Shown one piece after another: positions 12,621-64,000 of a stretch of DNA of 64,000 bases. The number at the start of each line of letters is the position of its first letter. The first letter of the stretch is position 1. Origin of the DNA: Minutocellus sp. GHC0000111 (taxonomy: Eukaryota); assembly GCA_977018835.1 (NCBI GenBank), contig OZ361256.1:1984001-2048000 (forward strand). The letters run 5' to 3'. The notes under the pieces are model-generated. The model did no database searches. It was not told where the DNA came from and saw nothing but the letters and a program-made list of their open reading frames with translations. The position numbers and the translations under genes are program-made.

Positions 12621-12796
12621 GAATCGCCCATAAATAGAGTACCGGTACTAGCTAGTACGTGTAAAGCTCTAGATTTAGTACATGCATGCAATAAAAAGCA
12701 AAGAGAGTAGAAGCGAGTTACATGTTCATGTAATTTTTTCTCTCTGGTGGCGTGCCGATCTCTGGCATCTTGCGGTGGTGCGTAGCGCTCCATTTT

Positions 12797-12828
12797 CTAC
12801 GTACGTACGTACGTACGTACGTACGTAG
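12797..12828. repeat. (TACG)7 microsatellite forming a perfect 32-bp palindrome
   Basis: c-tacgtacg...tacgta-g read directly. Confidence 0.9.
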
Positions 12829-14280
12829 CATTTTGACCTGGATTTGTGCTGACTGACTCACTGCGAGCTTGGGCAAAGTGTGCTCTGGGAACAAAGAGAA
12901 AGAAAGTCCGGATTTCATTTTTTCCCAAGGATCTTCTTTGTGCTTCCTCAAACAAGGTCCCATTTTACAGTTTCTGGAATTGGCTTTCGCAATGATGCAG
13001 GTTTATGTCGCAACAGGCGTTTTAGCAGGTTTTGCGGGGGAATGAACCCAGGATTGACAAAAACACGACGCACTCAACAGCGCCGTTTCTGCCTGATTTG
13101 AATGGACGTGAAACGAGAGACGGTCTCGATCCTCCTTCCCTCGTCGTTGTTAGCACTCTTCCGGGCCAAGAAATGCGAATCAACTCTGCCACCTTGCAAC
13201 CTGAAATTCATCCATCGCATGCATGCATGCACACACACACAAAAGAAACATCACATCGATGTCGTCTCAGCCCTCGTCTCCGACGGGAGCCGCCCTCGCC
13301 ACGGCGTCGGAGCTGGCGGCCCGCCCTGTGCCTGCCCCCGCTGTTCCCCCGGCTTCGTCGGCTGCAGCCGGTGGCAATGGCAATGTCTCCAAGACCACCG
13401 ACGTCGGCCTTGTTGCCAGCACCGCTGCAGCCAGTGCTCCTGCTCGTCCCGGCGTCGGTCCACGTCAGAACTCCAAGAAGGAGCTGATGGAGTCGGCCCA
13501 CCTCCTTTGCTCCCTCTTTGGCGGCGGCGGCGGTGGTTCTGGCAGCAACTCTCCTTCTCGCACTGCCGCTCCTGCTTCTGCTTCTGAAGAAGCCAAGGCT
13601 GAGGCTGCTGTGCCTGCTGTTCCCCCTCCTGCCGCCCTCGTCCGTCACGGCAGCAAGGGACCACTCAAGAAGCGCATGATGATGCCGGTCTTTGACGATG
13701 CCGACGACGACGCTGAAGAGTCAGCCGCTAGCGCCAAGGAGGACGGCCCAACGAGTCTCAAAACTGCCGCTGTTGCCGCCGTGGCCATGCAGCGTCAGCA
13801 GCAGCAGCCGCAGAAAGAACCGAGTGCTGCACTCACTGTTTCTTCTAGCACCTCCACCTTCACCACGGGCACCGCCGGCACCCCCAACGGGGACTGCTGC
13901 ACCATCCTCTACACGCCCGGCGAGGACGAGATCTGCCTCAGCCCCCAGCTGTGCCTGACCCCGCCCAAATCGAAGCCTTCGAGGCCCAGCCCGCCGACGC
14001 ATCCTCCCGCCGTTCGGCCGGCGGCCGGTCCATCAGCCGGACCCTCACGGCAGGGCAGGTGGGTCTGCGGTGCATCCACTGCAAGCACCTGACCCTCCGC
14101 GACCGGTCCATGTCCGCCGTGCGCTGCCCCGGATCCATTCGCCTCGTGTGCCAACCAGTCCGTCCGCAACTTCCAACGCAACCACTTCCTCCAGTGCAAG
14201 GCCATGCCCCAATCCATCAAGGACGAGTTCCAGACCACCCGCTCCCGCTTCGTCCAGTCCAAGGGCCGCAGCCATGTGTG

Positions 14281-14327
14281 CGAGGTCGCGGACAGCAGTT
14301 TCAGGGACCCGGTTTTTGGGTCTTTGG
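14281..14327 (+). repeat. Left terminal inverted repeat
   Basis: Inverted copy at 18253-18300. Confidence 0.92.
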
Positions 14328-15405
14328 GCAAAATCTCATAAAAATCAGCACAAACGCACGCAGCAAGCAGCATTTGTTTGCTGTCGTCCTGTCTTCAAGA
14401 TGGCGGTGACGGCAGTGCCGACGGCATCCGCTTCACGCAAGGGATGCAAGGGATGAGCGTGGTGTCTCCAGAACGGTTTGGTCCTTGACCTTGGACCGAC
14501 TCGGAGACATCGATTTCATCTTCCCATGCCAGCGTCTGGCCGATTCACCCCATCCATCGCCCCTCCCGACTTCTGCCAGTTTTTCCGATGACAACCGGTC
14601 ACCTCCTCCACCTCCCGACCCCACCACCACCTCCCAAATGCATTGATTCAAGTAGCCATGTGGTTTGAGCTCCGACATCGGTCTCCATGGTCCCCATGGT
14701 GGCGCATCTTGTGCGGTCCGGGTGACCCCGCGCCAAAATCGAGCGGGCCAAAAAAGTCATCACCCACCCGGCGCGCCCGCCACTCAATGAAACCTTCCTC
14801 ATTTCCAACCCACCCGACATGCAAACTGTTGCTCTGCTGCCACAAAATACTGCATCCAACACCACATTAATGCAAATTGCTGTTGCTGCTGCTGCCACCG
14901 CAGCTGATGCGCCAGCATGTCGCCGCTCCCGTCGGTCCGGCAGCTCCATCCCATGCTTTGACTGTTTTGTCCATCGGAGCGGCACCATCGATGCCTCTGC
15001 GATTCGTGGCAAGTCTCCTGGGATGATCCAGACCATAGCGAACCGGGCATGGGCGGGCCTCTCACTTCAGAAACAGCAGGATGTTGTGGAGCAAGCCCGA
15101 GAGGAGGAGCTGTGCTGTCCGAGCCAGACCGGTCCTGATCCGGCACAAGATGTGCCGATTTCTCAAATTCAAATTGCTCGGCGCAATTCGTCATCCAACA
15201 ACGCCGATGCCAGCCCTGAGCCGACGGTCGAGGACAATGCTGGTGTCGCTGCTCGTCCTGGTGATGATGATGTCGAAGCTGGGGGCATCGCCGAGTCCAT
15301 GGTGGTGGATGGAAGCGGCAACAGTGAAGAATCTGGCAATCCTGCCAGTGTCGGTGTTTCTGCTCTACCGGCACCGCCAATTCTGGTGGATCGACCGGGG
15401 AGAAT

Positions 15406-16868
15406 TTGGACGTGCTGCTGGTTGAGGCCGAAGCGCAATGCAAAGCTGCAGAGGAGGCTTTGAAAGGGCTAAGGGACACCTTGAAACGAGAAAAGCGGAA
15501 GGATGAAAAGGCCATGGCCGATGCCGAGAAGAAAAGGAACAAAATGAAGGAGGCGATGCGTCATTTGGAGCAGAGGGTACAAATGCGTGAACATCTTCGG
15601 TCGCACAGGATGCCGACGGATGCACCACCCGAACGCAAGAAAGCAATGAGAATGGAAGATAACATGCGACCTGCCATCAGTACTGGGGAATGTGTCCTTG
15701 TGTCTGCCGACTTCAGTCCCAACATGAATCGGCCTGAGGGCAAGGGATTTGTTATGGTCAGTCGAGGTGTCGGTGGAGGCACTCTTTGCGATGTCCAGCA
15801 TGAGAAGCCTTTTGGTGGCATGATGCATAAGAATGTGCCTCTCAAGGCCATCACCCCGATCCCACTCGGCCTCAACACCGATTCAATTGCCAAGGACAGG
15901 CGCAAACGGACGGCAATTTACCGAATGGAAAGAAGCGAGTTCTCCTCGTGCATTACGATGAGAAATGGTTCTGGGGTCTCGTCCTCCGAGCTTTTGCGAA
16001 GGCTTGCGAGGAAATCGGCGTGAAAAAGCGAGATTACGTGGCCTTTCACAGGAGCCACATCAACAAGGTCATGGCCATTGCATTTGCTGCCGCTGTCTTT
16101 GACGGTTCTCTTGAGAGTGGGTGCAAGGTTGTAAAACTGCCACTGGTGCGAGCTCAAGCTCCTAAAATAGCGGAGCGAGCTCAGTGCGAAGCAGCATCAC
16201 AGCCTGATGGTTCAACACAGCACCCAAATACCAACCCCGATGGGACACCAAAGGAACCTCTTCGCCGGAAAGGAGAGTCGTTTCTTGTTGATTGTTGCAT
16301 TACTGGATCGAACGAAGGCACCAAAAAGGATCCGAAATGCTCTTTGCTCCTCGTATTCAAGGAGACTATTTTCCCAGCGATTCTCAACCTTGTCGGTCCG
16401 GGCAAGCAATACGAAGATTGCCATGTTATTATCCAGGGCGACCAGGCCGGGCCTCACGAGGACGGAACCTTCACGCAATTTGTTACTAACTTCTGTGCTG
16501 AGCAAGGCTGGACGTGGCAGCCACAGGCACCGCAGATGCCTCACGCCAACGTCCTTGACTTGAGCTTGTTCCCCGCGATGAGCCGGCGGCACTCGGAATG
16601 GGCACGAAAAATGGTAGGCACCTCCGTCATTTCCACCGACCAGATCTGGGACACTGCCGAGGACGTTTACGATAGCATGCCTAACTGCAAAATTGCTTCG
16701 GCCTTCATTCAGTACTGGAGGATAATGGGCCTGGTGATTAAGGCCGGTGGTAGCAATGAGTTTGTTGGAAGGTTGGGTGACGAAAACTTGCACACTGGAA
16801 TTAGGATCGACTTCAACGAAACGGCCAAGGGGATGGAGCCCTCAGCTCGTCATCCTTCTAATAAATAG
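15406..16868 (+). pseudogene. Tc1/mariner transposase, frameshifted and probably internally deleted near 15920
   Basis: HYDEKWFWG, QGDQAGPH and QAPQMPHANVLDLSLF; 38 residues between the second and third Asp. Confidence 0.88.
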
Positions 16869-16963
16869 ATAGTATTAATATCTTTACACATGTATTAAAT
16901 AAATGTTACACATCTACAAATTATTTATAGATCTACATGTAAGATGCAGCAGCATTGGTTTGT

Positions 16964-18100
16964 TTATATCACGGTGGGCTTCTTTGTTCTTCTATTTCTA
17001 CCGGTATTCTTTTTTGCCTCCTTGGCCTTCTTATGATCATTAGAAAGCCACACAGCGTGGAGGGACTGACGAATCTTTCCGCGCTTCACACCATATGCAT
17101 CGGCAAGTTTATTGTCAGTGAGGGCAGGGTGAGCAGTTGGTTGTTTACTCCCATCCTCATATCCCAACTTATATGCATCTAATGCAATCTTGTCAGTAGA
17201 TAATGCAATAGAGAATTCTATTGTCTTGTTATCATACAATCCGAGTTCTCTGCTTCTCCACCCTTTCGGGTAGGCACCACGACCCTCTCTTACTTGGCGA
17301 TCGACTTCGATCATGCCTAGCACTGTGGTGACCGCGACCTCGCTACCCCAACCAGGAACTTGTTTGAAGGGGAGGTAGACCCCTTTCTCTTTTCTTCTTG
17401 GTTCGGGCCTCTGACTACATGTGGGTGACTTGTAGTTCTTTATATCTTGTGGTAGTGGTGCTTCTCCGTACGTCAAAAAGCACGCAAGCCTCCGATGTTC
17501 CTCAACCTCTCGTTCAATCTGTCGTTCGGTTGGTTCGGTTGGAGGCAAGGGCTCCAAGATGGTAGGGGATGACAATTGAAGGTTGCTGAACGACGGGCAT
17601 GAGCGGCTTGGGGTAAGAGCATACTGAGTATGAACTGACATTGGACTTGTTACCATGGGCGTGGCGGAGGGAAGGTCGAATGAGCTCACGGGCTTTCTCC
17701 TCTCGCCGCTTGGCTTTGCGTCGGCGGTTGCTATGCTCATCTCTGAGAATGAATCATCTTCATCAGAATGAGATGAAACGGTAGCGGTACCGCGAAAGTC
17801 GGCACGCAATATGTCATGATGCAAGTACTTCCTTGCTTGGGCTTGTTCGGCGGCGAAGCCATCCTCTTCGTTGTACTCGCGTCGATATTTCAACACACGA
17901 GGAGATGTGAGGTCTGACGATGCCGGTGGGACCCCTTGGTTGTCCTCCTCGTCATCGTTGTCCTTGTTCTCTCGATACCGCGGATGTTCCGGCGTTTCGT
18001 TGGAAGTTTCCTTCTCATGGCGCGAGGGGCTGAATGCAGTCGCCTCGGCGCGTTTCGGTGGACGCGGTGGACTGAAGATGTGTCCCTTTGGAGTATCCAT
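16964..18100 (-). CDS. Second ORF inside the transposon, function unknown
   Basis: About 378-aa uninterrupted ORF between the TIRs; disordered N-half, globular C-half, basic tail. Confidence 0.6.
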   Translation of the reverse strand: MDTPKGHIFSPPRPPKRAEATAFSPSRHEKETSNETPEHPRYRENKDNDDEEDNQGVPPASSDLTSPRVLKYRREYNEEDGFAAEQAQARKYLHHDILRADFRGTATVSSHSDEDDSFSEMSIATADAKPSGERRKPVSSFDLPSATPMVTSPMSVHTQYALTPSRSCPSFSNLQLSSPTILEPLPPTEPTERQIEREVEEHRRLACFLTYGEAPLPQDIKNYKSPTCSQRPEPRRKEKGVYLPFKQVPGWGSEVAVTTVLGMIEVDRQVREGRGAYPKGWRSRELGLYDNKTIEFSIALSTDKIALDAYKLGYEDGSKQPTAHPALTDNKLADAYGVKRGKIRQSLHAVWLSNDHKKAKEAKKNTGRNRRTKKPTVI

Positions 18101-18252
18101 GAGTATGGAAGCTTCTTGAAGCGCCAGTCGGCAGAAGTTGCCCAGTCTATTTGTGGTAATTGCTTGGAGGTCGGTTGTTGACGGATGTGTTTTGATTTGC
18201 TTGCTTTGCCGCGTGTTTTTCAAGGTGCGCGCAAACCGCCGTGTCGGAAAGT

Positions 18253-18300
18253 CCAAAGACCCAAAAAACCGGGTCCCCGAAATTGCTGTCCCGGACCTCG
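18253..18300 (-). repeat. Right terminal inverted repeat
   Basis: Inverted copy of 14281-14327. Confidence 0.92.
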
Positions 18301-20035
18301 TGCTGGGCCAAATCCTGCGCCGAGAAGGGCATGGTCGACACCGTCGACGGGGGCATCCGGTTCAACGTCGACGCCGGGGGGACGGTCGTCCCCGCCAACC
18401 CCGACAGCGCCGTCGAGGCCACCGAGGCCTTCATGGCGCAGAATGCCTCCCGGGGACCGGCCGCCCGGAAGAGGAAGGCCGAGCGGGATGCCAGCAGTGG
18501 TGGCGAGGACGAGTCGACCAACGCTAGTACTAGTAAGGAGACAACGACGACGACGACGAAAAAGAAGAAGAACAAGAAGAAACGGGCCTCCAAGAAGACG
18601 GTCGCTGCCGCCGCGGCGGCTGCCGTCGCCGCACGGGGTACCACCGGTACTGCCGCCTCTAAGACCGGAGTCACCGTCACCACCACTACCAAGGTTCGTA
18701 TCACGGCGAAGCCTGCTGCCGCCACTACTGATAGTACGGATGCCAAGCCATCTGCCGAGACGAGTATGGAAAAGGAGGACTCTCCAAACGCTCCGGCAGC
18801 CCTTGCCCAGCCGTCTGCGCTCGCCGCCGCCGTTGCTCCGGGCCCGGCCCCCACGGCGCTCGTTGCTGCTACCAGCACCGGTTCCATTCCCAACAACGCT
18901 GGGGGCGTCATCGCCCCACCGGCCCCGGCCCTGACCGCCCAGGTCTCCCTCGACGCCGAGCAGCTCCTGCGTCGCCAGATGCAGGAGTATCAGCAGCTGC
19001 AGCGGTTCTCGTCCCCGCCGGGTCAGATGGTCGCCCACCAGGGACAGGAGTCCGCCCTCGCCCAGGCCGATCGCATGATCCTGGCCTCCCTTCTCGAGCA
19101 GGAGCAGCAGCGGCAGCTGCTGGCGGCCCAGCTCAGTGGGCAGTACCATCCGCAGCACCTCCAGCAGCAGGCCCTGACCAACAGGCCTACGGCGTCTCCC
19201 GCGCTCGCCGCTGCCTCAGCCCCTGCCGGTGCTGCTGCCGCTCCTTCCGCGGCGTCCCTTCTCCGCCAGCAGCAACAGCAGGATGCTGCAGCGTCTCTCG
19301 GTCTGAGCCTGCCCGATCCCGCCGCTACTGCTGCCACTGCTGCATCCGCGTCCTCTTCGCCCGGAGCCACCGCCAACGCCGCCGCGCGCGCCGAATATCT
19401 GGTATACCTCGAAACCCTCGACCGGATGTCGGCCTCGATCAATGCAGCCCAGAATCTCGAGGCCGCCTACCGGACCAACCCAACCGTCGTCGGCAGGCTG
19501 CAGTACCTGGCAGCCAACGACGAAATGGCCGCCGTCATGCACCGGGCCAAGATCCAGGCGATGAATCTGCAGCGCATCCGCCTCGAGAGTCGTCTGAACG
19601 ATCTCAATGCCTCGCTTGGTACTGTCATGCAGGGTGGTGCGCCCGCCCCGGCTCTTGCCGCTGCCGCAGCAGCTGGGACTGGCGTGGTCCCTGATGCCGG
19701 TGCCGGTGCCATGCAACTCTCTCCGAATTCGCTACTTCGACAGGTGAGCGATTGACAATCAGCGCCGGATCCCAATGTTAACACTACGAAATGATGTACT
19801 ACAACAGAAGAAGGAATTCCTAGTGCAATGCTCGGACATCTGGCAACGTCGATAAACAACAATGAGAAGAAAAGCAACCCAGAACAGAAACTCTCATAGC
19901 TACTTAAAATAATGTAAATTAAACCACCACACGCTCACAACACTCTTCAAATACTGCACATAAAAAGAACTCCAATGGCTTCTATCGAAATTTACCTGGC
20001 AATCTAACTATTACGCAATTACTAGGCCTCCCTAT

Positions 20036-44615: not shown

Positions 44616-44856
44616 TAAAACTAACTAACTACTGAGAGAGAGAGAGACAGGCTCTGGGAGCCGGTACTGTAAGCTGACTTAGCAATTGCAACGGCAGCAA
44701 TCGCAGATGGTTTTGTGGTTTGCTTGGTCAGTTTTGAGACGACGAGAGGAGGCGAAGGTGGTGGTCAGCAGAAAAACTGGGCACTACAGGAATGCAGTTT
44801 TAGTGCCTGCTGCTAACCACCGTCGCCAGCTCATCCCCACCGTGCGGCACCCACAA
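44616..44856. repeat. Split direct repeat A2
   Basis: Near-identical to 52686-52913 apart from small indels and one CA/TA difference. Confidence 0.95.
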
Positions 44857-44998
44857 CGATGATGCATCGAACACAGCACCTCCCTCCGCTGATTCTCCCA
44901 ACTCCATGCAACTTACTTAGTAGAACATGAAAAATGCAGTTTAACTACGTGAACTGGAGCTGGCATTGGCGGTAAATGAAACTTCTTAGAGGGTGAGG
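44857..44998. repeat. Split direct repeat B1 (84 bp longer than B2)
   Basis: Matches B2 at both ends; 44890-44973 is absent from B2. Confidence 0.85.
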
Positions 44999-45049
44999 TC
45001 CCTCTCCCCCTCCTCCTTTCCGTAGCACAGATCGGCCAACAATGTGTGT

Positions 45050-46200
45050 CGTGCTTAGGTGAACAGGGCGAAGGGGGCATTGGAGTCCCGAAGCCGGCAT
45101 TTCGGCCAATGCTGTTGTTGATGCCGGCGAAGGATTGGCGGCAATTTGGGGTCCTTGGGTCTTCGCGATGGCTCGTCGAGTGTGCGTGGGGCACGTTGAA
45201 GAAGGAACCTCGTTGGATCATGCGTGTGGAGACTCCGGATGTAAATTCTTGGACCTGGCGACGGATGTGCTTGAGGAAGGCGTCACTGGACCACCGCCCT
45301 ACCAGCATGATTGTGTGCGTGGGAACATAATTTAGACACATTGCCATTGCTGCTCCGCTGCGAATGGAGTGTGATCCGAATTCAGAGGGATGGCAGCCCA
45401 GGACGTCCTCTCCAATCACTGTGGCCGACGCTCGGATCTTGTCAACTATTCGGGTGGGGCAGGAATGTGTTTTAACACGCCGTTGACCACGAAGGCATTT
45501 ACCGGCGCATCGCTGTTGGTACTAGGGTGCCCTAGGACTCGTTTCACCAGGGCAGCCCAAGCTCGAACTGGGCAGAGGGTGGCGTCGTGGGTGCAGTGTT
45601 GCGTAGTCGTGACGTCACGCTCGTCGTTCTTCTGGAACTCAAAGGTGACGGAGACAGAGTCTGCTGAGAGGAGGGACCGGTGGTCGTTGTGATGCATGCG
45701 CCGTCGGCCGCGGCAGAACTGGATGTTGCGGAGGCGGAGCAGCTTGGTCCTGCGCTCACCGCTGACTCTGGAGTGTTCGCAAGACCTCATCGCGAAGAAG
45801 AAGGCGCCGACGGCTAGTTGCCCGACTGCACGGTCCTCTTCCGTTTCCCTGACGGAGGCGATCTCTCGGAGGAGCCGGCAGGTGATCGCCTTCTCCGGCC
45901 ACTCGGCCGGGTCGGACTGGCTGTGTCCTCGGAACTGCCGCTGTAGAAGGAATGAAGGCTGGCCGATGTCGTCTTTCCCTGGGTCCCTGCGCTGGTTGTG
46001 CCGGAAGGAAGGACGAGCATGCACATGTGAGACGGCATCTCGGACTGTCGACGCAGCCAGTCGCGAAAACTTTGGCCCCGAAAAGCTGGCCTGTCGGACG
46101 GCGTGGGCAAAGGCGCCGAGAATGACTGTTCGGTCTCGGGGTGACACCTTGTCGAGGAAGACGTCGTCCCCGGTCCCGATGAGCTGCAGGAACTCAGTCA
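45050..46200 (-). pseudogene. Ngaro tyrosine recombinase, frameshifted, catalytic Tyr replaced by His
   Basis: FFFAMRSCE, FEFQKND, LCPVRAW, HSIRSGAA, GRWSSDAFLKHIR. Confidence 0.9.
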
Positions 46201-48380
46201 GTCCAGCGGCTCCACGCGAGAGCGTGCTTCTCGGCTGTGGCCGTTGCAACTGCTTCCTGATGGGCAGCGTCCGCGCCTGCGAGACAATCCAGGAAGTAAT
46301 CTCGTTGGGCAGTGGTGCAATCCTGAAATTTGAGGGAAGCTGACATTCGGGAGATGACAGAAGCAATTTCGTGAGGTCAGCATCAGAGAGATCGGTGTCA
46401 CGAGAAAGAGAATCGGCCTCCGGATTGCGCTTCCCCTGGAACCACTGTGAGCACAGCATGGTGTTGGTCTCGATGAGCATGTCGGCTAGTTTCCGCGCCG
46501 TGGCCAGCTTGACCGCTACGTCGGCATCCTTCTCGCCGTGAGACACGAAGTTCGACTTCCTGAGCCATCCCTCGGCCGTGGTGCTGTCGGTCCCTGACAG
46601 TGCGCAGGAGAGGGTTGGTAGGTTGCCCTCGATGTGGTCGATCCATGGGCCAATGACGGCGGCGAGGAATTCCAGGTAGTTGAGGGTGAACCGGCCCCAT
46701 GGCTCCTCGGGGAGGGCAAATCTTCACGCTCTGCCGGATGAGGACCATCCGCCGATGCCGTGCTCGCAGGCGTCACTTGTGTGCTCGTGGGTGGGGCAAC
46801 GGCACGTGAGGAGGTTCATGCTCATGCCATCGGCGGCCCTTCGGAGGAAGCGGAGCCATCCACAGGTTGAGGTCTTCTGCATCCTCAGAGTCGAACCGTT
46901 GGCGGCCGTGGCGGCGGGCCTTCCAGAGCCGATCCCGAAGGCGGCTGAGGAAGTGTCGTGCGGCTGGAATGATGTGTCCGACGTGGTTTAGCCTTCCGAC
47001 CAAGGTGTCCAGCTCTGATCTGGTGGCGCCGCGGGCTCTGAGGAGCATGTCATCGCGCCAGGCCAGGCACTTGCTCCAAGGGAGCCAGCCTCAGCAGGAG
47101 CCGCCGGGTGTCAGCATCCCACCCCAAGAGACACAGCACTTCGGAAGGCGTCCCTCGGCGAGCAGCTTCTTGATGGAGGCAAGGTCATCTCTGGGCAGTG
47201 GCTCGCTGTCGGACACCGGTCGGCCAAGCGCGTGGATGGCGAGGAGGGTGGCAGCGGACATCCGATCCTTGTTGTCGCCCAGGTCAGGGGCTGCGGCGAT
47301 GAGGTCATCGATGTGCGGCTCGACGATGCCATCCTTGTTGTCGGGAAGGGTTGCGATCATGTCCAGCGCCGGCGCGAACGGTGCATCGTCGCCCTCCACC
47401 TTGGGGCGACCCAAGTGCTTCTGCTGGGGGCATGGAGCTCTGACGGGTCCCAGTCCGAGCATTGCAGGAGGGCCCTGGCCAGGTCGGCCGCCGATTCGGA
47501 CATGTTGCACCATTCGCTCGGGCAAGGGCGTCCGCCGAAAGTCAGCCGGAGGGACATGAGGGCAATGCCATCCAGGGTGGTGATTGTTTTGACGGCCGTG
47601 CTGGGAGCCAAGTGGGCCCGGCGACACGCAGCCTTGAAATCGACCTTCTGCAGGAGGATGGGAGCACGGGGATGCTTGTGACGGGTGTCTACGATGTAGT
47701 GGATCACTCGCCGGAGGGCATGGCCGAACACCACTGGCTGGTGGTCCTCCATGCGTGCTCTGTTGTTGACGGACCGTGCGGCACCGATCTCGAAGGATTG
47801 GTCGTGAGTCAGGCGGTCCTTGGGCATGATCTCGCCAGCCTCGCTGATCGTGCTCTGTGCTGCCAAACCCATCAAGCCACCTCCGCTCCAGGAATGAGGG
47901 GCGCGACCTTTGCTGGCAGAGGGAGGACGAAACCGCGGGTCACGTCGTCGAGAACTTGGTCCTTGAGTGCCTCCGGCCTGTCCCTGGCCGATTTGTGGTT
48001 GCCTCGGCCGATGTTCTTTGTCACGCTGTCCAGTCTGCTTTCGTCGCTCACCGGATCGAGGGCCCAGTCGGATCCACTGTCGAGAATGGAGCGGAAGCGG
48101 GGCCACAGCGGGTGCCGGCCAAGAATCGGCTCCAGAAGACTCAGGTCTCTGAACTCCGATCCCGGTTGGAGTGGCGACCCGCCCTGCGCCTCGAGTGCCC
48201 TGCTCAGAGAACGATCGTGTTTCTTGAGGACCGACCAATTGTGAGCGGCGGCCTCCGTCAAGAGCTCAAATCTGAACTCCGTGGGCTTCGGTGTGGCCGA
48301 CGGGGACTCGACTGCTCGTCGGACGCACTGTGCCAAGGTGGAAACATCGAAGATGGGCTCTAGTTCCCACGTGGAATTGC
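46200..48380 (-). pseudogene. Ngaro reverse transcriptase/RNase H, multiply frameshifted
   Basis: RGNHKSA, KDRLTHDQSF, KVDFKAACRR, RLTFGGRPCP, PHIDD (YxDD position), VGRLNH, SDACEHGIGG, LNYLEFLA, DSTTAEGW, NPEADSLSR. Confidence 0.9.
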
Positions 48381-49017
48381 ACAAGGCGAGAAAAAGGTGA
48401 GATGTGTGCATGCTGCACGTTCACGAGCACACGGGTCTGTCCGACCATGGTGGGCCCATTGTGGGCGCTGGGCTGCCCCGTTTGTTGTAGAGGTGTTTCT
48501 TCACCTGTTGGTCTCACTTGCCATTTTGGCGTGTCGGTTCTGCTTCCTTGCTGTGCACAGGGGAACCAGGGGGAGACTGTGCTTCGGGTTGGGGCTGCTT
48601 GCCTAGGAGATCCTTCTCTCGCTGGCCTAGCCGGTCGAAGAGGTTGTCGGTGGCTTCCGCACCGCCAGCGTCAGTGGTGCTGGAGCCAGAGCCTGAGATG
48701 CTGTTGTCGGCGCAGGCATCACCGCTGGTGTTAGGGGGACCAGGACCCGACCGAAGGTCACTGCTAACGCCTCGGCCTTCTGCTCCGGTGTTAGGGGCAC
48801 CGGAGAGCCTGGATTGGTTGCTGATGTCGTTGCGACCGCACACGCCGGATTTTGGGGTGCCGGACAACCTTGGGCGGCTGGAGCCACCGGGGCGGATCGA
48901 CGCCGACGTGTCTGGCTGCACTCGACGGCGCTTGGAGGGACGAGCTCGGCCGGCTGGCCGAGATGTTTCTCCAGCATCCTCCGAGGGTGGGCCACGCCTC
49001 TGTGCCCACCCGATCCG

Positions 49018-51069
49018 TCATTCCTCCGCCTCCTCGCACTTCCGATCGCATTTCTCGACGTGCTGCTCGACGGGTCCTCTCTCCGATGCCTTAAGAGGCC
49101 TCTTGACATGCGACTTCTTGAGCTTACACGAGGATCCGGCGCCGCAGACACCTGTCAGGATGAATGGAGGGCAGAATTTACAGCCATTAATTTCAGGTCT
49201 GTCCTCATAGGGCTCGGATTTCTTGCCATGCCGTTTTGCAAAGTTGCCGGGGTTGATGTCGAACGTGACGAAGTGTTCGTGCTGGTGGGCTCTGCCGCTG
49301 GCGCCGCCCGTCTTTTGCTTCTTTTTCGGACTGGTTCTTGGCTCTGATTTGTCGGAGTCGGAATCCGAGGAAGGGGTGGGAGCGTCGGCCGATTGGACGA
49401 GCTTGATGTGGCTGGGGTAGACGAAAGGATTCTGAGTCTTCATTGTCATTTTGGACTCGTCGGCCATTGAGAAGCAAGAGAGGTCGTTGCCGGCGTCGTC
49501 GGGGGAACGGAGACAAGCTTTCCAGAATGCATGGATGGAGGCGTCGACATTGTGGAACATCGCCAGCCAGAACTTCTCGCCATGGCTCTCGGCGATGTCG
49601 CGGCACTGGTCCTCGTGTGTCTCCATGTGACTGAGGACCCTGGCGACGTAGCGAGCGGGCTCGGAGTCCTCTCCGGCAAGGAAGGAAGTGCCAGCGCCGA
49701 AGGCCGAGATGTGACGTTTGGCACCGTCGCACTCGGTTGGGGACCGGCGGTTCTGCTTCAGAAGAGCCTTCACCTGAGTCGAGGCATGTCCTTTCTTTTG
49801 AGAGGCGGCGAGGTGCAGGGGCGCATTGCTGCTGCTGGAGTTTGCCGGGCTAAAGGCGAAGACAGAGAAGCCATCGTAGATTTTCTTGTCGCTCTTCCCG
49901 AAGCCAAAGAGGCGGACGTAAGTGGTGAGGCCCTGGAGAGATGTCCTGACTCCGGTCTTGCCCTTTACATGCAGCTCGAGGCCGACAGCTGCTTGCGTGA
50001 GGTTTGACTCTTCCAGCAGTGCTTTCAATCCTTCGGGAAGATTCGAGTCGATCGCTGCTACATCATCGTCATGCTCGGTCGAGACCCGGCAGAAAGCGGC
50101 ACAGGCCTTGAGGATGGCGCCATTCATCGAGTGCTTCTTGTCGACCTTGTCAGTGTAGGCCATGACTGCGCCGGTGAGGGAGGATGCTTCGGACGCGGCC
50201 CTAGTCATGGCGTTGGCCGCGGCAGCAACTGCAGAGTCGGTCGGGGCGCCACCGGCTGGTGGTCCGTCGCCACTGGCGCCAGTGATGTGCCGAGCGTGCA
50301 TCTCACGGGCGCATGTCTTGAGAGCCGGGTCCGTCGTTGGGTGCAAGCTGACGGCCGGGATGTCACCTTGCTCGGACGTGGCGACGAACCACAGCCACTT
50401 GACGACGTGTTGAACAGCCTCATTGGAGCGAAGACCTGCTGCACCATGACCCTCGTCGTCACCGCTGTCTGATGCGTCGTCGCTGCCGGCGTCCTCATCC
50501 AGCCGACGTTTGATGGCGGACAGGATGGCCCAAGGCGATGCCTCGTGCTCTTCCAGAACATTCTGCAGAATCGAAGGTGGCAGCTGCACAAGGGACTTAA
50601 ACTTCGTGGAGGCACTCCGGTGGCGGGTGTTGGAGCCTTCCTGGGTGAGACCGGTTAGGGCGGCTTCTGACGGTGCCCCCAGCATGGCTTCCACCGATGG
50701 GGCTAGGACCTCCTTGTGCCGCAAGAGGCTAGGTTGGGCCAACGACATTGCCGGGGCTACATCGTCGATCCCGAGGAGCCCACCCAACCTGAGGTCGGGC
50801 TGCATGGTGGTGCCTCCCTGAGCCACGGCATGGTGAATCACCACGACTTTCCCTTCTGGATGGTGGGCCAGCATGGACAAACCCTCGGCGTCGCGGATTT
50901 GCTGCTGGATCGCTCGGGCATGGCTCTGGACCACAGCGGCCGTGGGGTCGGTTTCACAGACGTTGTCGGCGAGGAATCTCTGGAAATCTCGAGCCACGGC
51001 GGCGTCGGGCCCGGCCGGCATCTCTTGTGCCAGCAGGACTGACTTCCAGGTGTTGAAAGATGAAGCCAT
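49018..51069 (-). CDS. Ngaro ORF1 (gag-like) with C-terminal CCCH-type finger
   Basis: About 683-aa ORF upstream of pol; FCPPFILTGVCGAGSSCKLKKSH. Confidence 0.8.
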   Translation of the reverse strand: MASSFNTWKSVLLAQEMPAGPDAAVARDFQRFLADNVCETDPTAAVVQSHARAIQQQIRDAEGLSMLAHHPEGKVVVIHHAVAQGGTTMQPDLRLGGLLGIDDVAPAMSLAQPSLLRHKEVLAPSVEAMLGAPSEAALTGLTQEGSNTRHRSASTKFKSLVQLPPSILQNVLEEHEASPWAILSAIKRRLDEDAGSDDASDSGDDEGHGAAGLRSNEAVQHVVKWLWFVATSEQGDIPAVSLHPTTDPALKTCAREMHARHITGASGDGPPAGGAPTDSAVAAAANAMTRAASEASSLTGAVMAYTDKVDKKHSMNGAILKACAAFCRVSTEHDDDVAAIDSNLPEGLKALLEESNLTQAAVGLELHVKGKTGVRTSLQGLTTYVRLFGFGKSDKKIYDGFSVFAFSPANSSSSNAPLHLAASQKKGHASTQVKALLKQNRRSPTECDGAKRHISAFGAGTSFLAGEDSEPARYVARVLSHMETHEDQCRDIAESHGEKFWLAMFHNVDASIHAFWKACLRSPDDAGNDLSCFSMADESKMTMKTQNPFVYPSHIKLVQSADAPTPSSDSDSDKSEPRTSPKKKQKTGGASGRAHQHEHFVTFDINPGNFAKRHGKKSEPYEDRPEINGCKFCPPFILTGVCGAGSSCKLKKSHVKRPLKASERGPVEQHVEKCDRKCEEAEE

Positions 51070-51559
51070 GGTGATCAATGCTCGACCACCTTGCCTGTCG
51101 CCTTTGGCGTCGGTCCTCTCGGCGCTGGATGTGGTTCAGATCGGCCGTGAGGGTGAGGATGCGGTCGGCGATGTCGGGCTCTCCAAAGGCGGATAGAAGG
51201 ATGTTGAATGCCTGACGCGGTGGCTCTGATGCCAAAATATCGGCGGTGATATCTCGCAGGCGGATAGGTGCCTCGAGATCGTCGGGGCGCCGGTGAATTG
51301 ATGCTCTTGGCCAGACGCGGCAGTGGGCACCCTCCCAGCGATTTGGATCGGCCGTGTCGTCTAGCCACCTCGGATAGACTCGATGGTAGGTGCCTACCCA
51401 GCGGTGTGAGGGGGACGCCGTTAGATCTGCCAGCCTTCCCCCCAGTGTTCGTACGGGTTGACCTCCACTCGGTGTCCAAGAGGATTGCTGTCAGGCCGAA
51501 TGTGTCGGAGTCGAGCGCTGGTGAGGCTCTCGAATCCACTGTCCCAGTTGATAATAGCT

Positions 51560-52516
51560 TCAGTGAGTTGGTCCGGTCGTAGGTGCTGCCGTCTCTGGAA
51601 CGAATGGGTACGGCGAATCCAGCGGGAACTGGGTGATCAGGGCGAAAGGGCCGATGAGATCTCCTCGCTCCAATGCCACACTGACGCCAGCCCGCTCGGT
51701 TCGGTCGTGTGCGTCACGTGGGTAGAAGAGTGGCCTTACCTCCCACTCGAAATAAGTGAGCGGCAGCGTTGGTGGAAGCTCGCTCCCCCGTGAACCTATG
51801 CAAGCGTACGGTGTCGGCTCTAGAGGTCTGCCCTCTCTGGCCGCGATGCGCCGTCTTTCTTTTCGGTCGGCCTGGTAGTGGAGGATGCACTGCGTGAGCC
51901 GGCAGAGCTGGGGCCAGATGCAATGGTGTTGCCGCGCTGCTGCTACCGATGCCTCCGGACACCTTCGCCCCCGACACTGTTGAACCACGACGCCTCCGTC
52001 TGCCCGTGGTAGTCGGTACAGTGCACTGCTCAGGTCCAACTCAGTTGCCGTCTCGTGTGCCCGGCGGATCTCAGGCTCGTTAAGGCGCATGGCTATCAGC
52101 CAGATGTTGACGAGGTGCGTGGGCCAGTCCGGTGACACCAAGAAGGCTTGTTGCTCGAGGTACTCGGCGACCAGACCGTGCGCTGCTGGAGCAAGGTGTG
52201 AAACGGCTGCTGCTGGGGATGGCTGGTACCCCGTGGCTCTCGATGGGAGGTAGCCTGTGGCGCGCTCGACGAGATCGGTGAGGTACTCGGTAACGTCGAT
52301 TCGGCCCTCGGCAAAACTTTTCCACCAATCCAGTGCGTCTGTGGTCAGTCTCTCGGACGACGCCCTGGCTGTGAAGAAACTTCTGCGCACGGGCCGAATC
52401 GGACGTCTGAGTCTGTCCCAGCCTCGTGGAAGGTCAGGAGAGTCTCCTCGGACGATGAGGTCTCTTGCCACTCCGAACAACACGTGATCCAGTTCCGGCC
52501 GATCTGGTTCGGCCAT
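51560..52516 (-). CDS. Extra ORF of unknown function inside the Ngaro 5' region
   Basis: About 318-aa ORF between A1 and gag, on the same strand. Confidence 0.5.
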   Translation of the reverse strand: MAEPDRPELDHVLFGVARDLIVRGDSPDLPRGWDRLRRPIRPVRRSFFTARASSERLTTDALDWWKSFAEGRIDVTEYLTDLVERATGYLPSRATGYQPSPAAAVSHLAPAAHGLVAEYLEQQAFLVSPDWPTHLVNIWLIAMRLNEPEIRRAHETATELDLSSALYRLPRADGGVVVQQCRGRRCPEASVAAARQHHCIWPQLCRLTQCILHYQADRKERRRIAAREGRPLEPTPYACIGSRGSELPPTLPLTYFEWEVRPLFYPRDAHDRTERAGVSVALERGDLIGPFALITQFPLDSPYPFVPETAAPTTGPTH

Positions 52517-52685
52517 GCACTGTTCTGCCGTCGTAGAGACTGGTATCGGATCTACGTGCACTATCAACGGAGCTGAGCCGTGGCCGTTTGACTCCGGAGT
52601 CGACTGCGGTCTCTGGACTAACTAACAGCAGTGGTGGTGTGTCGGCCAATAATTACGAACTCGTAGAGTAGCACCAACCTAATGC

Positions 52686-52913
52686 TAAAACTAACTAACT
52701 ACTGAGAGAGAGAGACAGGCTCTGGGAGCCGGTACTGTAAGCTGACTTAGCAATTGCAACGGCAGCAATCGCAGATGGTTGTGGCTTGGTCAGTTGAGAC
52801 GAGAGGAGGCGAAGGTGGTGGTCAGCAGAAAAACTGGGCACTACAGGAATGCAGTTTTAGTGCCTGCTGCTAACCACCGTCGCCAGCTCATCCCCACCGT
52901 GCGGTACCCACAA
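52686..52913. repeat. Split direct repeat A1
   Basis: taaaactaactaactactgagagag...gcggtacccacaa, a copy of 44616-44856. Confidence 0.95.
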
Positions 52914-52956
52914 AGGTGGCCCAAGGCAAGAGTTGATAACCAGCCTGCACTAAGCA

Positions 52957-62684: not shown

Positions 62685-64000
62685 TTATAGCAAATCAATG
62701 ACTCCATCGTCTTCATCATTTTCATCTATGTCGTCCTCAATGTCATCATCTTCGCCGGGAGCATCAATTGGCCAGAGTGGTTCACCATCCTCTTCAGCTT
62801 CTTCCTCTCGGCAATTTTTGCGAGACCAGCCTTTCCCCGTCTGGTCTCCACAAGATTGTTACCGCCACGACTTCTCTTGATGTTGTTATATATCACTGGA
62901 AGTTTTCCAAATACATTGAGAAAGGCCTCTTTTGATGCGACATTGGCCCATACTTTCATCACAGTCTTGTCAAGAGCATTCGCATCATTCTTCTGACCGC
63001 GATGCTCCTTTTCGACGGCCGACTGCAAAGACATCCAGATGCCGAGATCAAGAACATTTGTCTCGGGCGACCGAGGAACCTGCTGGATTATCTCAATCTT
63101 ATATTTGTTTTTGAGGTCCTCGGTGTACTTCTCAACTGCTTCATTGGACCCATGACCGCCGGCATTGTCCATCATAAGACATGTAACATCAGACTCCTGA
63201 ATATTTTGTGGATCCCACTTCACCCAATGATGTGCGTCTCGAATCGCCTTCCCGACCTCATTCATAGTCTCCAACATCCATTTGGAGTCGCAGCTACAGT
63301 CCTTGGTAACCTTATCGCCCCGTTGATGCCGCACCCCGAGCTCAAGGTCGTCGATCTCAACCTTCACCTTCTCTCCATTGCTGCTATCAGGAGTGTGTCG
63401 CTTGAGACTCGAGATCTTTTGATTGTAGCCAACAGCGGCATGCTTGCGACTTTTTGCCTGACCGTCGGATTTATAGTCCTCGTATTGAAGTTCCAATCGC
63501 TCTGTGTAACAAACTCAGAAAGGCCGTAGATTTCGGCAGTGTGGTCGCAAAGATGGCCGGCGGTCATGTCAGCATTCTCGTCGTAAATGTCGCGCCAATC
63601 TTTGTCATTTTTTAGCGCATCGTTGACCTTAGCATCTGGAGAGAAATTCTGATTACGCGTAAGCTTTTCCACCTTCTGCTCCCTGGCGACTCTCTTGATC
63701 ATGATGCGCCCATTGAAATCAACGTCTTTGGTTTCATCCTTCATTGGTCGGCCAACAACTCCAAGATACATAACTTTGACAGGGTGTCTTCTGGATCGAA
63801 TTTTCGGGCTTGCCTCGGAAGCATGGATAGACGCGAGGTTCGGACTGCTTAGTTCTTCGTCAGAAAGTGGCAACATCTTGATCTTTCGTCGCCGAGTAGC
63901 AGTGTAAAACCACTTTTCATCAAGATACGCTACAGGAATGTTGGGATCGGTCGTAATGTCCTCCCACTTTTCGATCCAATCAAGTCGCTTCCTACAACAT
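62685..64000 (-). pseudogene. Tc1/mariner DD39D-type transposase, frameshifted, 5' part beyond the window
   Basis: YLDEKWFY, KVMYLGVVGRP, MDNAGGHG, QVPRSPETNVLDLGIW; 39 residues between the second and third Asp. Confidence 0.88.

Follow-up and report, generated by a model that had tools for sequence, protein, structure and literature searches.

Elements of the Tc1/mariner group duplicate a TA dinucleotide at their target site, so how does a copy of such an element come to lie between two TGs? The question is raised by a window of 64,000 nucleotides from the diatom Minutocellus sp. GHC0000111 (GenBank assembly GCA_977018835.1, contig OZ361256.1, positions 1,984,001-2,048,000, forward strand), which is the whole stretch that we analyzed and whose own positions are used throughout. 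The window is eukaryotic DNA with a G+C content of about 53%, and it holds a Tc1/mariner-type DNA transposon copy of 4020 bp at 14281-18300 (plus strand), inserted into a host gene. At the left junction the letters are ...CAT GTG TG/CGAGGTC..., with the element starting at 14281, and at the right junction they are ...GGACCTCG/TG CTGGGCC, with the element ending at 18300. Both copies of the target site duplication (TSD), at 14279-14280 and 18301-18302 on the plus strand, read TG. An initial annotation of the letters had noticed this, correctly, and had proposed that both copies mutated from TA to TG after insertion, by a process acting on DNA. The evidence given here makes it likely that both TAs were indeed rewritten to TG after the insertion, by a TpA-directed hypermutation of DNA that changes A:T to G:C.

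An empty allele with TA at the target site

We compared Logan contigs of six public runs, from five studies, with window positions 13500-19000 and 14200-18400. Contigs of an empty allele skip 14280-18302 and join 14279 to 18303 with a single A, which gives CAT GTG TAC TGG GCC, exactly what the initial annotation had predicted for excision of the element with a TA restored. This allele is present in five of the six runs and four of the five studies: X15 and X16 (one study), X1 (a sponge metagenome), X11 (a biofilm metagenome), and X9 (a marine metagenome). The sixth run, X5, has no cover of the host flanks. The contigs also show what surrounds other copies of the element. On the left, the loose-end consensus before 14281 ends in TA (three contigs in X15 and four in X16). 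On the right, the consensus after 18300 is T followed by A, with divergence from the window just after 18301 (four to five contigs in X16, four in X11, and one in X9). By this consensus, TG duplications are not routine in the element family, an outcome in favor of the proposal made in the initial annotation.

The element breaks an open frame. Upstream, the host protein runs ...SKGRSHV and then meets a tgc codon, and downstream it continues as C-WAKSCAEKGMVDTVDGGIRF..., the same reading that had been noted before. With TA restored, both sites become G-TA-C, where the left C and the right G are the outermost bases of the element. The host exon upstream of the insertion (13770-14278, plus strand) carries converted sites, at which the window has G or C and the empty allele A or T. 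The continuation of the gene lies at 18303-19755 (plus strand), where the frame stays open to 19755; no conversion is seen in it, and an X16 contig shows 0 differences to the window over 18303-19000. An annotated protein in this downstream part, P0088, begins MVDTVDGG.

We used the 43 residues upstream of the insertion to search 1.84 billion representatives for homologues and found 16 proteins at E <= 0.001. At the interrupted codon, Tyr is present in 18 of 19 domain instances (17 of 18 distinct ones, since one is counted twice), Pro in one, and Cys in none; the motifs are QYW, QYY, HYY, and QYF. The host family thus keeps Tyr at this codon, as had been claimed. A second site can be polarized in the same manner. 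At 14123 and 14126, cac tac (His-Tyr) in the empty allele corresponds to cgc tgc (Arg-Cys) in the window, and the homologues have Tyr or Phe (AV.YP / AV.FP). Since Tyr occurs in homologues at both sites, TA is ancestral, and the G of the window is derived. With the downstream host piece as query, the only protein found was that of the window itself. The host homology spans three frame segments, in frame 2 to about 13960, in frame 1 over 13969-14163, and then in frame 2 again, so the window allele needs two frame changes (at about 13950-13970 and 14147-14160) besides the insertion and the Tyr>Cys changes.

A tract of changes at TA across the left junction

The two TSDs are not the only places at which the window departs from the empty allele. 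Over 13715-14279, 18 differing places and 5 gaps separate the window from an empty-allele contig. From 13870 to the junction, all nine differences, together with the left TSD, have G or C in the window and A or T in the empty allele. Nine of the 13 upstream sites, counting the left TSD, are T-A in the empty allele. With the right TSD added and every site read on the purine strand, the changed base follows a T at 10 of 14 flank sites, all of them T-G-C (expected 0.24, P = 2e-4).

The same bias is seen on the other side of the junction. Over 14200-18400, the window has G or C where the reads have A or T at 30 of 41 differing places in X16 and at 30 of 42 in X1; differences in the opposite sense number 8 and 9, respectively. 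Among the 31 differing places listed for the element, 22 have G in the window and A in the other copies, 7 are reverse transitions, all of which are CpG decay, and 2 are transversions. Sixteen of the 22 listed G sites are T-A in the other copies (expected 0.30, P = 4e-5), and 15 are T-A-Y, where Y is a pyrimidine (P = 4e-8).

These 22 sites, at which A is found in the majority of the family or in a large share of it, mark a converted part of the element at 14376-16221, which is apparent from the run contigs and from TA depletion. Window-specific changes of T-A-Y to T-G-Y are confined to 13770-16221 and occur on either strand, at a ratio of about 2:1. Within the element, the tract takes in the left 1.9 kb, with the right 2 kb spared, and outside it the tract covers host exon for at least 0.4 kb. 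In this unconverted right part (16231-18258), the listed high-depth unitigs of X16 show three differences to the window over 16231-17094, none of them TA-type, and 0 differences over 17122-17235, 17265-17533, 17695-18103, and 18138-18258. The observed/expected ratio of TA is 0.13 over 12967-14280, 0.13 over 14281-15500, 0.27 over 15501-16300, and 0.68 over 16301-18300, with a background of 0.57-0.62. The 5' part of the host gene is nearly TA-free, without a single TA between 13151 and 13729.

TAG and TAA, often CTAG-like, account for most of the TAs left in the tract. It follows that the preferred target is the A of T-A-Y, and in an R-TA-Y step, where R is a purine, either strand can be hit. 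G-TA-C, the form of both restored duplications, is an optimal site of this kind. The initial annotation had placed the changes in a GTAC context, which is right for the two restored sites; the context that matters is T-A-pyrimidine, of which GTAC is a special case. A GTAC-specific process was ruled out, as most converted sites are CTAC, ATAT, and the like. The (ACGT)n microsatellites at 2316-2364 and 12791-12839 keep all of their GTACs, so there is no window-wide GTAC-directed change. A motif restricted to TAC was dropped in favor of T-A-Y after TAT sites were found in the element. Folding of the left end as single-stranded DNA was not informative (z = -1.75).

We considered whether such changes could have been made in RNA, by ADAR-like editing, or by an erring reverse transcriptase, and then fixed in DNA. 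A T on the 5' side recalls the 5' U preference of ADAR, and in a read-through transcript the paired inverted ends of the element might bring both flanking TAs into one stem. However, this is a cut-and-paste element; bases have changed in host DNA and in the TSD, outside the terminal inverted repeats (TIRs), and on both strands of a single tract. Neither RNA editing nor reverse transcription of the element can explain a tract that continues past the junction into unique host DNA, and we know of no reverse-transcription step for such a locus. We therefore regard this route as extremely unlikely, in agreement with the initial annotation, which had rejected it on the position of the TSDs outside the TIRs. 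The process at DNA level that it proposed instead finds support in host DNA beyond the element, where both strands show TA-to-TG/CA changes, and in the family-wide replacement of Tyr described below.

How much time was there for these changes to arise? The window does not differ from a unitig of X15/X16 over 13500-13744 or from X16 in the downstream flank, and in its right 1.1 kb the element has the letters of the family majority throughout. Given an identical haplotype upstream, an identical downstream flank, and an identical right end, the insertion looks recent, and a recent insertion would leave ordinary mutation unable to yield about 40 changes. This bears on the idea that the TGs are two unrelated point mutations or polymerase errors made in filling the 2-nt integration gaps. 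A G:T mispair is the commonest polymerase error and could account for the left TG. At the right end, however, the two-fold symmetry of strand transfer would be expected to produce CA rather than TG. Divergence is 0 in about 1.8 kb around the right site, so a chance A>G at exactly that base would be very unlikely, and some 40 further TA-type changes would be left unexplained. Mutation or gap filling of this ordinary kind is a very improbable source of the two TGs.

Related changes in other family members

If a process of this kind acts on the element family, its effects should be visible in the transposase proteins of other copies. We aligned 60 cluster members and the frame of the window, 61 sequences in all, to the relative P0002 over 307 catalytic columns. 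There are 301 deviations from the majority, including 35 of Tyr>His (at five sites) and 22 of Tyr>Cys (at six sites); six of the seven columns with majority Tyr are affected. Neither Cys>Tyr nor His>Tyr occurs among these 61 sequences and 307 columns. Ile>Thr (16), Thr>Ala (13), and Ile>Val (7) each outnumber their reverses. Ala>Val (30) goes in the opposite direction, for which we have no explanation. In many copies of the family, such changes, one or a few per copy, are almost the only ones.

The nucleotide data agree. At several of the G sites of the window, the G variant makes up 12-76% of the family depth in runs from other studies; found in independent runs, these variants are real. We also considered the reverse polarity, a change of TG to TA in all other copies and in the empty allele, resembling repeat-induced point mutation (RIP). 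This was ruled out by conservation of Tyr in the host homologues and in transposase outgroups; in the latter (42 proteins), Tyr or Phe is present at three of the six polymorphic Tyr sites.

Evidence against conversion after insertion

Several observations weigh against the conclusion that both TAs were converted after insertion. The flanks of the other copies are known as a consensus, not as counts of TA, TG, and CA per copy, and 12 of the 41 differing places in X16 lie outside the listed places to which the context tallies refer. Six of the 22 element sites and four of the 14 flank sites are not TpA; they are ApA, GpA, or CpA, and some of the CpA cases may be CpG decay in the other lineage. 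At least part of the TA-poor stretch at 12967-13770 is common to the haplotype without conversion, as the window has 0 differences over 13500-13744 to a unitig that runs on into the unconverted empty allele; the stretch may have the natural composition of a GC-rich, low-complexity exon or may hold older conversions present in both haplotypes. The right TG is isolated: there is no TA-type difference over 16222-18300, 83 TAs are left in 16301-18300, and the downstream flank is unchanged. A second hit thus needs an event of its own. Two independent hits need not match, and a TG..TG direct repeat is also expected from duplication of a TG target. Finally, the filled allele, with its TGs and converted flank, appears in none of the six runs (X5 being uncovered at the flanks), and at 14224 the sole contig in X15, X16, and X1 is the empty allele. 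Since no run contains the filled allele, the letters of the window there stand without confirmation by independent reads. Its nonappearance in six runs is no evidence of its absence.

This last point leads to the suspicion that the TGs and the nearby G/C letters are errors of assembly or base calling, for example at modified bases. That neither the filled allele nor the converted flank is seen in any of the six runs fits this idea, as do the 5 gaps in the flank and the two changes of frame in the host gene. Other findings speak against it. The window is letter-perfect against independent unitigs in the listed pieces of 17122-18258 and over 18303-19000, and its changes are motif-specific and limited to one tract. 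Runs from other studies also have G at these TA sites, and Tyr>Cys/His recurs in family proteins from many contigs. Furthermore, the same signature is present in Illumina mutation-accumulation data of another alga, reported in a recent preprint (bioRxiv 10.64898/2026.01.13.699255). We consider an artefact quite improbable.

A different account begins with the isolated right TG. The same TA-directed process could have converted the host site first; the transposase would then have integrated at TG and duplicated it, and later hits would have extended the tract. A duplication yields identical direct repeats, as seen here; from an error made symmetrically at both ends, TG..CA would be expected. 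Converted host flank adjoins the site, and the right end carries no other conversion. Of 2,018,489 Sleeping Beauty sites, 4853 are TG and 5511 are CA, the most used non-TA targets, and perfect non-TA duplications were confirmed at some sites (PMC5801840). By the same figures, though, such events are rare, non-TA targets making up 1.4% and TG about 0.24% of insertions (PMC5801840), and Sleeping Beauty non-TA events are described in a follow-up paper as mostly one-sided and aberrant (PMC7987939). Integration at TG requires that unique host DNA was hypermutated before any transposon was there, yet all empty alleles seen, in four studies, are unconverted and have TA. The tract is continuous over the junction at equal density, with the same TA observed/expected ratio of 0.13 on both sides, for which one episode after the insertion is the simplest account; integration at TG needs a second episode to carry the tract into the element at that density. 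A TG target is thus unlikely.

The element and its transposase

The inverted ends of the element run CGAGGTC...GGGTCTTTGG. Comparison of the ends with each other places the left TIR at 14281-14327 (plus strand), without any TA, and the right TIR at 18253-18300 (minus strand). Positions 14281-14320 pair with 18261-18300 over 40 nt at 88%, and pairing of 14308-14327 with 18253-18272 extends this to about 47 nt with one T-run indel. The inner TIR word has no other match in the window at <=3 mismatches, and none of 100 shuffles matches, so the pair is not a product of chance. The ends are fixed independently by contigs of other copies, which diverge from the window exactly before 14281 and after 18301. 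Insertion at TA is supported by the empty allele, which has one TA where the filled allele has two flanking dinucleotides, and by the TA consensus at other copies.

An open frame at 15831-16868 (plus strand) encodes a transposase catalytic domain (HYDEKWF ... GDQAGPH ... LDLS), recognized through its relatives and a structure model of P0002. A protein search with this frame found 87 relatives. Five 90%-identity clusters, with 161 member sequences on many large contigs, are 82-97% identical to the frame. The other relatives are mostly 36-54% identical, and the three that are named are all diatom: Cylindrotheca closterium, Nitzschia inconspicua, and a Bacillariaceae metagenome-assembled genome. 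PF01498, the Tc3-type helix-turn-helix (HTH) domain, is present in many of these more distant relatives. It is also found above the cut-off in P0002, an intact-looking relative, and likewise in 15 of 15 aligned relatives. By sequence, the catalytic part has no match in Pfam (including the open reading frames [ORFs] of the window), NCBIfam, or the PDB.

The P0002 model has a mean pLDDT of 81. A Foldseek search of the PDB with this model matched Mos1 (E = 5e-9), the SETMAR transposase domain (TM 0.71), and the Sleeping Beauty catalytic domain (TM 0.64), which suggests an RNase-H-fold DDE/D transposase like that of Mos1 or Sleeping Beauty. Among 15 relatives, D331 and D370 (P0002 numbering) are invariant, and D170 is at least 90% conserved. 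Because of the fold matches and these acidic residues, the element is Tc1/mariner-type. Apart from the Mos1-like fold predicted for the family, it shares with IS630-Tc1-mariner elements the inverted ends and the 2-bp TA duplication; its transposase family differs in lacking a Pfam catalytic match and in an unusually long spacing between the first and second acidic residues (D170, D331, and D370 in P0002). The copy in the window differs further in that its duplication is now TG..TG and in that it lacks the N-terminal Tc3/paired-like HTH domain. P0002 residues 1-153, the HTH-bearing N terminus, have no match anywhere in the window, so this copy, though a member of the family, is likely non-autonomous.

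The family varies in length. A 358-bp segment at 15552-15909 (plus strand) is replaced by TGAGA in a large share of the family depth, as shown by a joint of 15551 to 15910 in X15, X16, and X5, and the predicted proteins P0001 and P0003 read across this shorter form. In X5, a 2849-nt contig joins the right end (18298) to the left end (14281) through the palindrome GGACCTCGAGGTCC, with no TA between them. This contig also lacks 14742-15909, and a similar joint is present in X1. Such a joint could be an excised circle, a tandem pair, or an artefact of the assembly graph at the inverted repeat. The right third of the element is filled by a stop-to-stop frame of 465 codons on the minus strand (16964-18361) without a Pfam match. 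The Cylindrotheca relative P0018 has a weak hit by tblastn at 63559-63993 on the minus strand (23% identity over 147 residues, E = 1.6e-4), where a related element may have left an old remnant. A search for the TIR patterns in metagenome, viral, and genome contig collections found no DNA of other copies.

The window holds a second TA-poor tract of 8 kb at 44616-52918 (core, 45901-51400), between direct repeats of about 240-300 bp that are 98-99% identical. It has 43 TAs where about 118 are expected (observed/expected ratio, 0.21), and TAG accounts for 26 of them. On the plus strand it has more G than C and more T than A. One of the differences between the two repeats is GGCACC against GGTACC, a TA/CA difference at an R-TA-Y site. 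We could not assign this tract to the long terminal repeat retrotransposons, as none of its 36 ORFs has a Pfam hit.

Discussion

A cut-and-paste transposon leaves in its TSD a piece of host DNA whose starting sequence and time zero are known, and here the untouched allele is on record in public data, which makes the locus a clean, polarized record of before and after. From this record we favor conversion of both TAs to TG after insertion, supported by TA in the empty allele, by the TA consensus at the flanks of other copies, and by conservation of Tyr. On this view, the element would have inserted at a TA, with duplication of that TA, and would then have attracted a mutator that rewrote susceptible TA steps in duplex DNA, from A to G, on either strand. 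This tract would have reached into the host exon, and the left TA would have become TG as a part of it. The right TA, also an optimal G-TA-C, would have been hit separately, which is plausible, single conversions that stand alone being common in the family. The predicted agent is an adenine deaminase, for which an ADAT2/3- or TadA-like adenosine deaminase is a candidate by analogy with the proposal made for Bigelowiella natans. By analogy with Sleeping Beauty, in which loss of the TA flanks hampers excision, the TG flanks would be predicted to hamper excision of the element in the window.

In Neurospora and other fungi, RIP, which depends on duplication and on a sexual stage, changes CpA/TpG to TpA by dinucleotide-specific transitions on both strands and leaks into adjacent unique DNA. 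The process proposed here is a functional analogue, as both are transition hypermutations of mobile or repeated DNA at the level of DNA. Its chemistry and direction are opposite, from TpA to TpG/CpA; rather than C>T at CpA creating TpA, we see TA depleted.

APOBEC enzymes, acting on cDNA, and ADAR enzymes, acting on double-stranded RNA, attack the replication intermediates of retroelements. They too leave transitions in mobile elements that are clustered and context-specific, but only in sequence with an RNA or cDNA intermediate. The changes described here extend to the host exon and to the TSD of a DNA transposon, outside its TIRs and on both strands, which requires action on the chromosome.

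A parallel in chromosomal DNA comes from mutation-accumulation lines of the chlorarachniophyte B. natans (Mettrop et al. 2026, bioRxiv 10.64898/2026.01.13.699255). In these lines, mutation proceeds at ~6e-7 per site per generation in two viral regions integrated in the genome, much faster than the background; the changes are almost only A>G/T>C, all on TpA, in integrated foreign DNA. The tracts are depleted in TpA and enriched in CpA and TpG, TpA-poor genes are enriched in DDE and RT (reverse transcriptase) domains, and the authors propose an ADAT2-like adenosine deaminase as a defence (bioRxiv 10.64898/2026.01.13.699255). The diatom locus resembles this description in the conversion of TpA to TpG or CpA depending on strand, in its location in chromosomal DNA, in being local and on inserted sequence, and in the TpA-depleted tracts. 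Its changes, too, are almost only A>G/T>C, with polarity given by the empty allele, the host homologues, and the transposase outgroups.

The two systems also differ. Theirs is a rhizarian with viral insertions of 25-186 kb; ours is a diatom with a 4-kb Tc1/mariner copy, in which the tract of about 2.5 kb covers only the left part of the element and runs on for at least 0.4 kb into a host exon, conserved Tyr codons included. All changes are on TpA there, whereas about a quarter of the sites here are non-TpA. We see a preference for a 3' pyrimidine (T-A-Y); diatoms, flanks, and trinucleotide context go unmentioned in the preprint. The identical flanking haplotype and right end would speak for recency here, not for a mutation rate. 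Our searches of the literature on diatoms found no report of TA-directed A>G hypermutation.

If both TAs were converted after insertion, the locus shows that TA-to-TG/CA changes in diatom transposons arise on the chromosome after integration rather than in an RNA or cDNA intermediate, and that they spill into a neighboring host gene, where they alter conserved tyrosines. A signature known from one 2026 preprint on viruses of a chlorarachniophyte would be extended to a diatom and to DNA transposons, with a 3' pyrimidine preference added. The locus offers targets with which to test candidate adenine deaminases and to ask whether loss of the TA flanks immobilizes the element. On a broader view, diatoms may run a fast, insertion-triggered, adenine-directed mutator of DNA that prefers R-TA-Y steps, the same as that of Bigelowiella and hence old in SAR, which very soon after a transposon lands rewrites TA steps in the element, in its TSD (which would disable the excision site), and in hundreds of bases of the adjacent host gene. 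We put this forward tentatively and are ourselves nearly evenly divided over it, leaning slightly toward doubt. If it is true, genome defence carries a direct mutational cost to host genes.

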